DNA from: a virus
DNA: 44,878 nucleotides
Virus genome (UHGV): UHGV-0250870
Reading direction: 5' to 3' (one strand)
How positions within the stretch are numbered: position 1 is the first letter of the stretch; every line of letters starts with the position of its first letter. Positions 6,001 through 9,000 of the stretch are shown one piece after another. The position numbers are program-made.

Positions 6001-9000
6001 TTCTGGGTAAAAAACATCATGAGTCCGGCAAAACTCCGGGAAAAATGGGATGAACTGGTTATCCGCCTGGGGCGTTCGCCTGCGCAGCGTTGCGTGAATC
6101 ACATTTCTGAACCGGACACTGAAATACCGCCGGGATTCAGGGGGTGACGTGTCATGAAAAACATTGCGGCAGTTGGGGTTCTTGAACGTATTCGCAGACT
6201 TGCACCACAGGGGTCGGTTCCACCGTACCGGACGGTGGAGGAGTGGCGGGAATGGCAACTTGCTGAAGGACGAAAACGCAGCGAGGAGATTAACCGCCAG
6301 AATCGCCAGTTGCGGGTGGAAAAAATCCTGAATCGTTCGGGCATCCAGCCTCTGCACAGCAAATGCTCGTTTGCAAATTATCAGGTGCAGAACGACGGGC
6401 AAAAATACGCGCTGAGCCAGGCCAAATCCATAGCTGACGAACTGATGACCGGGTGCACGAATTTTGTGTTCAGCGGTAAAACCGGCACCGGGAAAAATCA
6501 CCTTGCAGCGGCGATGGGCAACCGGCTGATGGTGAAGGGGCGCAGCGTGATTATCGTCACCGTGTCTGACGTCATGAGCGTGTTGCATGACAGCTACGAC
6601 AACGGCAAATCCGGGGAAAAATTTTTACAGGAGCTTTGCGGGGTTGATTTGCTGGTCCTGGATGAAATAGGCGTTCAGCGGGAGACGAAAAACGAGCAGG
6701 TGGTATTGCACCAGATAATTGATCGCCGGACAGCATCACTGTGCAGTGTCGGGATGTTAACAAACCTGAATCATGCCGCAATGAGTACGCTTCTTGGTGA
6801 GAGGATTATGGACCGCATGACCATGAACGGTGGTCGATGGGTGACGTTTAACTGGGATAGCTGGCGTCCAAATGTCAGCAATATGAGGGTTGTGAAGTAA
6901 TTTTGTCCGGAGGAAATTTTAATGGAAACCGTATCTGACGCACTGAAAGCACTGAAAAAAGCCTCTTCACATGTGGTGGCAGCTCGCCTTGGAATCAGTC
7001 GTGAAGAGGCTGTCAACGAGCTGTGGGAACTCAAAAGAAAAGGCGTCGTTGATAAAACTGGTCGCACCTGGTTTCTGGCTGGCGAAGGTGAATCCCGGGT
7101 AACCGAAGAGCGGCCAGTAAAATCTGAAGCACAGGATATGCTGACCGGGGAGGTCGAACAAAAAGTTACCGCAGACATGATGATTGAGTTTATCGGTCAG
7201 GATGGGGCTAAAACGTGTGAGGAACTGGCGGGTAAGTTCGGCGTCAGTACTCGCAAGGTTGCCTCCACGCTGGCGGTGGTAACCGCAACGGGGCGGCTGG
7301 CACGCGTTAATCAGAACGGTAAATTTCGTTACTGCATGCCGGGCGATAATTTACCAGCAGAGCCGAAAGCCGCGCTGGTAACGGAAAGTGATGGTAAGGC
7401 CTTTCCTCAGCCAGCAGGTGCTGCGTTACCAGTCCGGGAAGCCGCAACACAGGAAGAAATTAAAACAGAAACTGTGGCGGACATTGTGCAGCCGTTGCCA
7501 TCGTTTACCGAAACGCAAGCAGATGAGCTGATTTTTCCGTCCCTTCGCAGGGCAAACCTGGCGCTGCGCAGGGCGAAAAGTGATGTTCAGAAGTGGGAGC
7601 GAGTCTGCGCCGCGCTGCGGGAGCTGAACAAGCACCGGGATATTGTTCGACAGATTACTGATTCTTCCCGCCGTGTTGTATCGGAAAAGTGATTGCCGGA
7701 GGCGCTTATGGCAAAAGTATTTACACAAGAAGAGCGGGAAAAAATTAAAGGGCAGGTTGTTGAACTTGTACGTCTGAGCGGTCGCGAGACGTTGCGGCAA
7801 CTGGAAGCCAAGACAGGTGCGACAAGATATCTGATAAGTGTTCTCGCCAGAGAGCTGGTTGCCAGTGGCGATGTATACAACTCTGGTTACGGGTTATTCC
7901 CGTCTGAACAGGCGCGTAAGGACTGGCAAAATGCTCGCAAAAAACTCTCAAGGGCAAAGGTGAAGAAACCTGCAGTGGTTGATCCGGACCTTATCTGGTC
8001 GTTACCAGACGGCGAAATACGCCGCTACGACAGGCGCCTGAATATAATCTGTCGCGAGTGCCGGAAGAGCGAAGCTATGCAGCGTGTACTGGCATTTTAT
8101 CAAGGAAATGTTAGGTATTTTAGACGTTACTAGATTAAAGAGCATTAGTTCAGATGTGAATTGACATTTTCATGGCGCAGGGTAGAGCCAGCGTGGTTGT
8201 CCGCTTTGCGTCAAAACCAGATATTACCAGATTTAGACATATATTCCCGATAGCCCTGCTCTGATGCTACACTCTGTGCTATTTTCATGACCCCAATAAA
8301 AATATTTATGACTATTGCTGATTTCAAACGGCCTAAATTGGATCTCCCAAACGGGGCAAACAAACTACTACTGCACTCTTGCTGTGCTCCATGTTCCGGT
8401 GAAGTGATGGAGGCGCTTCAGGCCTCGGGAATCGACTACACCATCTTTTTCTACAACCCGAACATTCATCCTCAGAAAGAGTATTTAATTCGTAAGGATG
8501 AAAATATTCGCTTTGCTGAACAACACGGCGTGCCGTTTATCGATGCTGATTACGACACCGACAACTGGTTTGAACGTGCCAAAGGAATGGAATGGGAGCC
8601 TGAGAGGGGGATCCGTTGTACCATGTGTTTTGACATGCGTTTTGAGCGGACAGCGTTGTACGCTGCTGAAAATGGTTTCAGTGTGATCAGCAGTTCACTG
8701 GGCATTTCACGCTGGAAAAATATGCAGCAGGTTAACGAGTGTGGGCGGCGAGCTGTTGCGCATTATCCGGGTATGGTGTACTGGGATTATAACTGGCGCA
8801 AGCAGGGCGGCTCGTCCCGTATGATTGAAATCAGCAAGCGCGAAAAATTCTATCAGCAGGAATATTGTGGCTGTGTGTATTCTCTGCGCGATACCAATCT
8901 ACACCGCAAATCTCAGGGACGCCCTCTTATCAAAATTGGCCAACTCCACTACGGAAAAGAAGAGAAGGAGTGATTTTATGGATCACCTTTCTGATTGATT

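Follow-up and report, generated by a model that had tools for sequence, protein, structure and literature searches.

Epoxyqueuosine reductases in bacteria and phages

The last step of queuosine (Q) synthesis, in which epoxyqueuosine at position 34 of tRNA (oQ34) is converted to Q34, can be carried out by either of two enzymes, QueG (PMC4646009) and QueH, which are unrelated in fold and cofactors. QueG, encoded in Escherichia coli by yjeS, relies on cobalamin (B12) and two [4Fe-4S] clusters, and proteins of the DUF208/QueH family have been described as cobalamin-independent reductases (PMC5615194). According to the account given in PMC4646009, which cites Frey 1988 and Miles 2011, the step from oQ to Q is cobalamin-dependent in E. 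coli and queG knock-outs of strain K-12 accumulate oQ; hence K-12 has no second reductase. Here we describe a queH gene carried by a lambdoid prophage, UHGV-0250870. The stretch analysed, referred to below as the window, comprises 44,878 nucleotides (nt), and all positions are counted from its first letter.

Two further groups of phage genes provide points of comparison. The 7-deazaguanine clusters of phages, in which DpdA is accompanied by FolE, QueD, QueE and QueC, belong to the same biosynthetic pathway family as QueH. Phages reuse queuosine-pathway enzymes in this way for 7-deazaguanine DNA modification, and a 2019 survey of viral 7-deazaguanine genes reported no QueA, QueG or QueH homologue among the viruses analysed (PMC6884629). 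Unlike the DNA-modification genes, QueH acts once the base has been placed in tRNA. The second group, the morons of lambdoid phages (lom and bor, for example), consists of small accessory cassettes inserted between the conserved modules of the phage. The prophage queH resembles them in being small, mosaic-edged and lower in GC content than its surroundings, and in combining a host-type function with a candidate promoter within the cassette itself. It differs from the morons in that no terminator was detected after it, and in specifying a tRNA-modification enzyme instead of a surface or virulence protein.

We found no paper in the searchable literature that discusses prophage QueH. The enzyme family, its reaction and its annotation are already known, and the phage-side biology is apparently unstudied. 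The comparisons described below suggest that the gene probably specifies a working cobalamin-independent QueH, captured as a cassette, which would make completion of Q in the lysogen independent of B12. The value of the locus lies in this physiological question, B12-independent queuosine in lysogens, rather than in a new kind of system.

The prophage gene encodes an intact QueH

An original prediction, made from the nucleotide sequence of the window, had drawn attention to an open reading frame (ORF) at 8287..8973 (+) containing a CCAPC cysteine motif and an FFYNPNIHP segment, and had assigned it to DUF208/QueH. Both motifs are present, at 8380..8394 (+) and 8446..8472 (+), respectively, and the assignment holds. 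A hidden Markov model search with Pfam matched PF02677 (QueH) at an E-value of 1.1e-65, its 221.5 bits lying far above the cut-off of 23.5 and the match covering model positions 1-174 of 175. Alignment with the Thermotoga maritima QueH sequence of crystal structure 7LC5 extends over residues 27-203 at ~30% identity (E 8e-22). NCBIfam returned no match for the queH product. Sequence comparison thereby confirms that the ORF encodes an intact, full-length QueH (PF02677, DUF208, IPR003828), a member of the cobalamin-independent family.

The cysteines of the metal site, whose loss on alignment would have spoken against this identity, are all kept. Cys25, Cys26 and Cys29 of the CCAPC motif (numbering for the 221-residue protein) align with C9, C10 and D13 of T. 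maritima QueH, and the CxxC pair (Cys104 and Cys107; 8617..8628 (+)) and the CGC pair (Cys187 and Cys189; 8866..8874 (+)) are kept in every QueH aligned, T. maritima included. All six family cysteines (Cys25/26, Cys104/107 and Cys187/189) thus have a cysteine counterpart in the T. maritima protein. Nor do they vary across 34 close homologues or anywhere in a diverse alignment (32-51% identity), and the FFYNPNIHP segment is the same in all the gammaproteobacterial QueH sequences that were compared. The roles of individual residues as metal ligands we take from titles of Protein Data Bank (PDB) entries and from alignments. By homology, the prophage protein would hold a [4Fe-4S] cluster and, next to it, an iron.

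The predicted structure agrees with the family assignment. The AlphaFold2 (AF2) model of the prophage QueH is of moderate confidence (mean predicted local distance difference test score 72.2; predicted template modelling (TM) score 0.73). T. maritima QueH takes the first five places among its PDB matches, with E-values of 1e-8 to 6e-8 and target-normalised TM scores of 0.74-0.77, in a comparison that the original prediction had proposed. The next matches, the sulfurtransferases LarE and TtuA, are more than 1000-fold weaker (E 2e-5 and weaker). Hence the prophage and T. maritima proteins (7LC5, 7LC7 and 9DEU) have in common the Pfam family, the six cysteines and, in the model, the fold (target-normalised TM 0.76-0.77). 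They differ in the motif that is CCAPC in the prophage and CCAPD in T. maritima, and in an extra basic C-terminal tail of ~25 residues in the prophage protein, which is kept in gammaproteobacterial QueH.

The longest ORF encodes 228 amino acids, but the conserved start of queH is likely to be the second ATG, at 8308, rather than that at 8287. The most divergent E. coli allele, that of strain TUM14759, lacks the 8287 ATG and has an in-frame TAA between the two start positions. Moreover, the seven extra residues of the longer form vary between alleles, the start of chromosomal QueH homologues corresponds to 8308, and the gene call of the Prokaryotic Genome Annotation Pipeline (PGAP) is 666 bp long. 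The coding sequence (CDS) would then be 8308..8973 (+), specifying 221 amino acids plus stop and retaining the PF02677 match, the 7LC5 alignment and the QueH name given by PGAP. Older GenBank records begin queH at Met41 of the long ORF, giving a 188-residue product that therefore lacks CCAPC. PHROG 3217 (phrog_3217, 'unknown function') is likewise a 188-position profile that matches only residues 41-228 of the long ORF. In comparisons that involve the most divergent allele, synonymous changes in the 33 codons before Met41 outnumber non-synonymous ones (8 versus 1, for example), and these codons are therefore translated.

queH is widespread in E. coli and coexists with queG

The original prediction did not recognise queH as a standard gene of lambdoid phages. 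It is nevertheless not rare. Of 5426 complete E. coli genomes, 995 (~18%) contain its CDS, and in 985 the coverage reaches at least 80%. Every E. coli case among the matches listed is already named 'epoxyqueuosine reductase QueH' by PGAP. The E. coli copies are always in lambdoid prophages, and the carriers include ST131, O104:H4, avian pathogenic E. coli (APEC) O18 and some O157 strains. At least 189 viral contigs in IMG/VR carry queH, the best 80 of which are identical in protein sequence.

The statement that enterobacteria normally use QueG proved right for E. coli, in which chromosomal, B12-dependent queG is a core gene found in 5426 of 5426 complete genomes, every queH carrier included, with queH an accessory gene beside it. 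It does not extend to the order as a whole, since QueH occurs in Enterobacter and Klebsiella, Providencia, Photorhabdus and Ewingella. The usual, although not strictly defining, phyletic pattern is for QueH to replace QueG in genomes that lack queG. The E. coli carriers depart from this pattern in that all of them keep queG. The prophage QueH in E. coli is a second, redundant route beside QueG.

Among ~50,000 deposited phage genomes, a single cultured phage, Escherichia phage HannyBb, has queH; the gene is intact and labelled 'hypothetical protein'. HannyBb is the only deposited phage in which the phage context was verified, two other 'phage' records with QueH having been checked. In the first of these, L102 (CAKLQH020000001.1; 'Acinetobacter phage MD-2021a', 328 kb), QueH is surrounded by soxR, cynX and tadA. 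In the second, L105 (MT835504.1; scaffold_58 of an unverified faecal 'Bacteriophage sp.'), it is accompanied by ABC transporters, argininosuccinate lyase and topoisomerase. Both resemble bacterial chromosomes and hence provide no evidence for widespread phage QueH.

The prophage gene derives from an enterobacterial chromosome

The nearest relatives of the prophage QueH are chromosomal genes outside phages, those of Enterobacter and Klebsiella being ~90% identical in amino acid sequence. Indeed, the protein cluster formed at 90% identity that holds the prophage QueH also holds the Enterobacter and Klebsiella proteins, with P0002 (~90% identical) as its representative. These Enterobacteriaceae proteins are 221-222 amino acids long and identical to the prophage QueH in the 26-residue motif, the CxxC and the CGC. 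Whereas the window copy belongs to a lambdoid early-region cassette, the chromosomal gene sits among housekeeping genes, in the order LysR-GNAT-QueH-CsbD-EAL for P0002, with no phage genes nearby. The QueH proteins of Providencia (adjoining tmcA), Photorhabdus and Ewingella are ~80% identical and likewise have ordinary chromosomal surroundings. In a neighbour-joining tree, drawn without bootstrap, the E. coli prophage alleles form one clade beside Klebsiella and Enterobacter.

The prophage alleles differ from one another mostly at synonymous sites (dN, non-synonymous substitutions per site, 0.015-0.025; dS, synonymous substitutions per site, 0.27-0.45; dN/dS, 0.05-0.07). Between prophage alleles and chromosomal orthologues dN is 0.13-0.17, and among those orthologues 0.14-0.17, so that no acceleration is seen. 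Low dN/dS together with unaccelerated dN indicates, at the level of sequence, that purifying selection on the prophage queH is strong and gives no hint of a changed function.

queH occupies a discrete cassette with a candidate promoter

As had been supposed, the gene belongs to the early-right region of the prophage. It follows a cro-like gene, YdaT, the replication genes (HTH and IstB/DnaC-like), DUF1627 and DUF977, and is followed by hok/sok, DUF968, RusA, the Q antiterminator, a DNA methyltransferase and three tRNA genes. The hok/sok locus starts at 9041, with sok identified by Rfam at 9041-9216. A comparison of 80 viral contigs and the divergent alleles showed that ~8258-8983 alone is common to all allele lineages. 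Recombination junctions fall just outside queH, on the left at ~7700, 8000 and 8130 and on the right at ~9040, 9150 and 9450, and the gene differs in composition from the window (47.3% versus 53.2% GC). The locus hence shows what is expected of a moron, namely a discrete cassette, mosaic junctions and deviating composition. In other alleles a truncated methyltransferase fragment lies directly upstream of queH (L090, 2714-2899; L091, 2714-2899; L092, 3762-3968), and this remnant is probably a scar left when the cassette was inserted. The prophage of O104:H4 shares the queH region, its structural module being unrelated to the late region of the window.

The left part of the cassette consists of a leader (8259..8307 (+)) that is common to all prophage alleles and holds the invariant block CTCTGATGCTACAC. 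It is kept even in the TUM14759 allele, where sequence farther upstream is unrelated. Within the leader, comparative conservation singles out an extended -10-like element, TGcTACACT (8265-8273 (+)), as the candidate promoter of the cassette. Chromosomal QueH genes of Enterobacteriaceae have a similar leader, with TGcTAnAnT ~40 nt before the start, and two chromosomal orthologues carry TGCTACAAT or TGCTAAAAT at the matching distance from the start codon. In one of these two (L104) the upstream neighbour is divergently transcribed, which places a promoter in that intergenic region. The match between the -10-like motif of the leader and those of the chromosomal orthologues suggests that queH was captured together with its own candidate promoter.

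The leader also bears a resemblance to a preQ1 riboswitch, in the form of GCUACAC and an A-rich tail. This candidate was rejected: an Rfam search of 8100-8420 at E-values up to 10 gave only a chance microRNA match, and no preQ1 riboswitch reached the gathering score anywhere in the window.

A proposed route to queuosine without B12 in lysogens

Judged by homology, the prophage QueH would convert oQ to Q at position 34 of host tRNA-Asp, -Asn, -His and -Tyr. We propose that a leader of ~50 nt and the CDS were captured from an Enterobacteriaceae chromosome, that the cassette came to lie at its present position in lambdoid prophages, with the replication genes on one side and hok/DUF968/rusA/Q on the other, and that the prophage copy would free the last Q step from the supply of B12. 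E. coli has no de novo B12 synthesis and has to scavenge the vitamin. Transcription would probably proceed from the extended -10 promoter of the cassette itself, in the manner of a moron, with read-through from the early-right promoter adding to it after induction.

In the textbook picture drawn from K-12, B12 is needed to finish queuosine and QueG is the sole epoxyqueuosine reductase. Approximately 18% of complete E. coli genomes have, on a prophage, a strongly conserved alternative that does not require B12. If this alternative is active, tRNA modification in carriers would not depend on the corrinoid supply of the gut, and results on oQ and Q obtained with K-12 would not transfer to carrier strains. 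Phages with a late-step tRNA-modification enzyme are rare, and this would be one of them. Whether as a lysogenic-conversion gene for tRNA modification that frees Q from B12 in about one-fifth of strains, or as a means by which the phage sets the oQ/Q ratio during infection, the prophage QueH could be the first enzyme confined to the queuosine branch that a phage encodes; this reading as a whole we put forward tentatively and think somewhat more doubtful than sound.

Several observations weigh against a working QueH expressed to the benefit of the lysogen. At the metal site, Cys29 takes the position of T. maritima Asp13, the residue changed in the D13N structure 9DCO. CCAPC is found in 11 of 12 sampled QueH sequences other than that of T. 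maritima (in which the motif is CCAPD), those of the Staphylococcus aureus and Listeria types included, and because of this the cysteine is, by alignment, a variant at the level of the family and no defect of the prophage copy. As to expression, a strict scan for the sigma-70 consensus detected no + strand promoter upstream of queH, one allele has a weaker -10-like hexamer (TACACA), no Shine-Dalgarno sequence precedes the ATG at 8308, and no terminator is predicted after the gene, either in 8973-9041 or across 7600-9435. Given the outcome of the strict scan and the absence of terminator and Shine-Dalgarno sequence, expression in the lysogen is something that we infer. As to the size of the benefit, we know of no established functional difference between oQ-tRNA and Q-tRNA in E. 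coli. Finally, the regulatory state of this copy of the prophage is in question. Its cI-like repressor gene (1395-4449 (-)) is apparently split into an HTH part (4150-4449) and a Peptidase_S24 part (1395-1757), with an IS21-family element inside it (istA, 2562-4061; istB, 1810-2565), and through the split repressor the prophage may be non-inducible or otherwise deregulated.

The same enzyme could instead serve the phage, as a delayed-early product of the early-right promoter after induction or infection, raising Q relative to oQ for phage translation or against a host response. We consider this unlikely, although some observations favour it. queH is oriented as the cro-like, replication and Q genes are, and the lack of any predicted terminator across the region would suit such transcription. 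Moreover, phage infection of Shewanella is reported to increase Q and lower oQ by way of queG induction (2026 preprint, 10.64898/2026.03.05.709803), which indicates that the oQ-to-Q step can be a regulated point in infection and makes a role on the phage side plausible. Against it, the leader motif held in common with chromosomal orthologues suggests independent transcription, and verified phage context in 1 of ~50,000 deposited phage genomes is unexpected if queH gave a general lytic advantage. The codon usage of the prophage also offers no reason for such a role. The original prediction had linked the gene to the translation of phage codons and to the three tRNAs of the prophage, and neither link found support. 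NAU codons make up 0.55 of the Asn, Asp, His and Tyr codons in its early genes and 0.56 in its late genes, an unremarkable share that implies no special demand when set against the E. coli average. The three tRNAs have the anticodons CAT, TCG and TCT and are not queuosine substrates, because none has a GUN anticodon.

It is less probable still that queH is a passenger, acquired through illegitimate recombination and kept only because it hitch-hikes in prophages that are successful, and that it serves no selected function in E. coli. The presence of queG in every E. coli genome, the methyltransferase remnant upstream of queH in other alleles, read as a scar of rearrangement, and the weak ribosome-binding site of queH would all be consistent with such an origin. 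A neutral passenger would, however, show decay. This is contradicted by the dN/dS of ~0.05 across alleles that have diverged at synonymous sites to the extent given above, by the near full length of 985 of 995 copies and by the retention of all catalytic-site cysteines.

Least probable of all is a new phage function in which the QueH fold acts on another substrate (a modified phage DNA base, a free nucleoside or a counter-defence substrate), since the known reuse of queuosine-pathway enzymes by phages is outweighed by ~90% identity to chromosomal QueH without accelerated change, by the lack of QueA, QueG and QueH from the viruses of the 2019 survey, by the lack of a PADLOC defence-family match and by the failure to find DpdA/Tgt, FolE, QueC, QueD, QueE or any other preQ0-synthesis gene, either in the window ORFs that were scanned or in what PGAP annotates in the O104:H4 sister prophage, a result that also leaves the link to deazaguanine DNA modification without support. 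A captured QueH that completes queuosine in the lysogen without B12 is hence the reading we retain.

Other features of the prophage

Of the three tRNA genes, that at 13736-13811 (+) is called tRNA-Met (CAT) by ARAGORN, and its counterpart in the O104:H4 prophage is called tRNA-Ile by PGAP. The PGAP label would fit a CAT anticodon that is read as Ile after lysidine modification. Downstream of the tRNA genes are two copies of the STnc100 small RNA (sRNA) family, at 14061-14251 and 14529-14738 (+), scoring 136 and 165 bits. These are followed by a SASA-family carbohydrate esterase resembling nanS-p (14961-16815 (+)), apparently split into two overlapping ORFs (14961-15449 and 15397-16815). The gene is intact in the O104:H4 prophage, at 1854 bp, and the split in the window suggests a frameshift.

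The late region of the window (19588-24468 (+)) is HK97-like, with an HNH endonuclease beside the small terminase and an ORF of 673 amino acids in which prohead protease and major capsid are fused (Peptidase_S78 and Phage_capsid). At the left end, the window begins just beyond the position of dicB in the related O104:H4 prophage, and the DicF antisense sRNA is found at 175-226 (-) as a full-length match to the model (76.7 bits). At the right end, after the tail-fibre genes, a 150-amino-acid ORF (43831-44283 (+)) matches the Pfam family R_equi_Vir (the virulence-associated Vap proteins of Rhodococcus equi) with an E-value of 5e-34, which is unexpected in an E. coli prophage.

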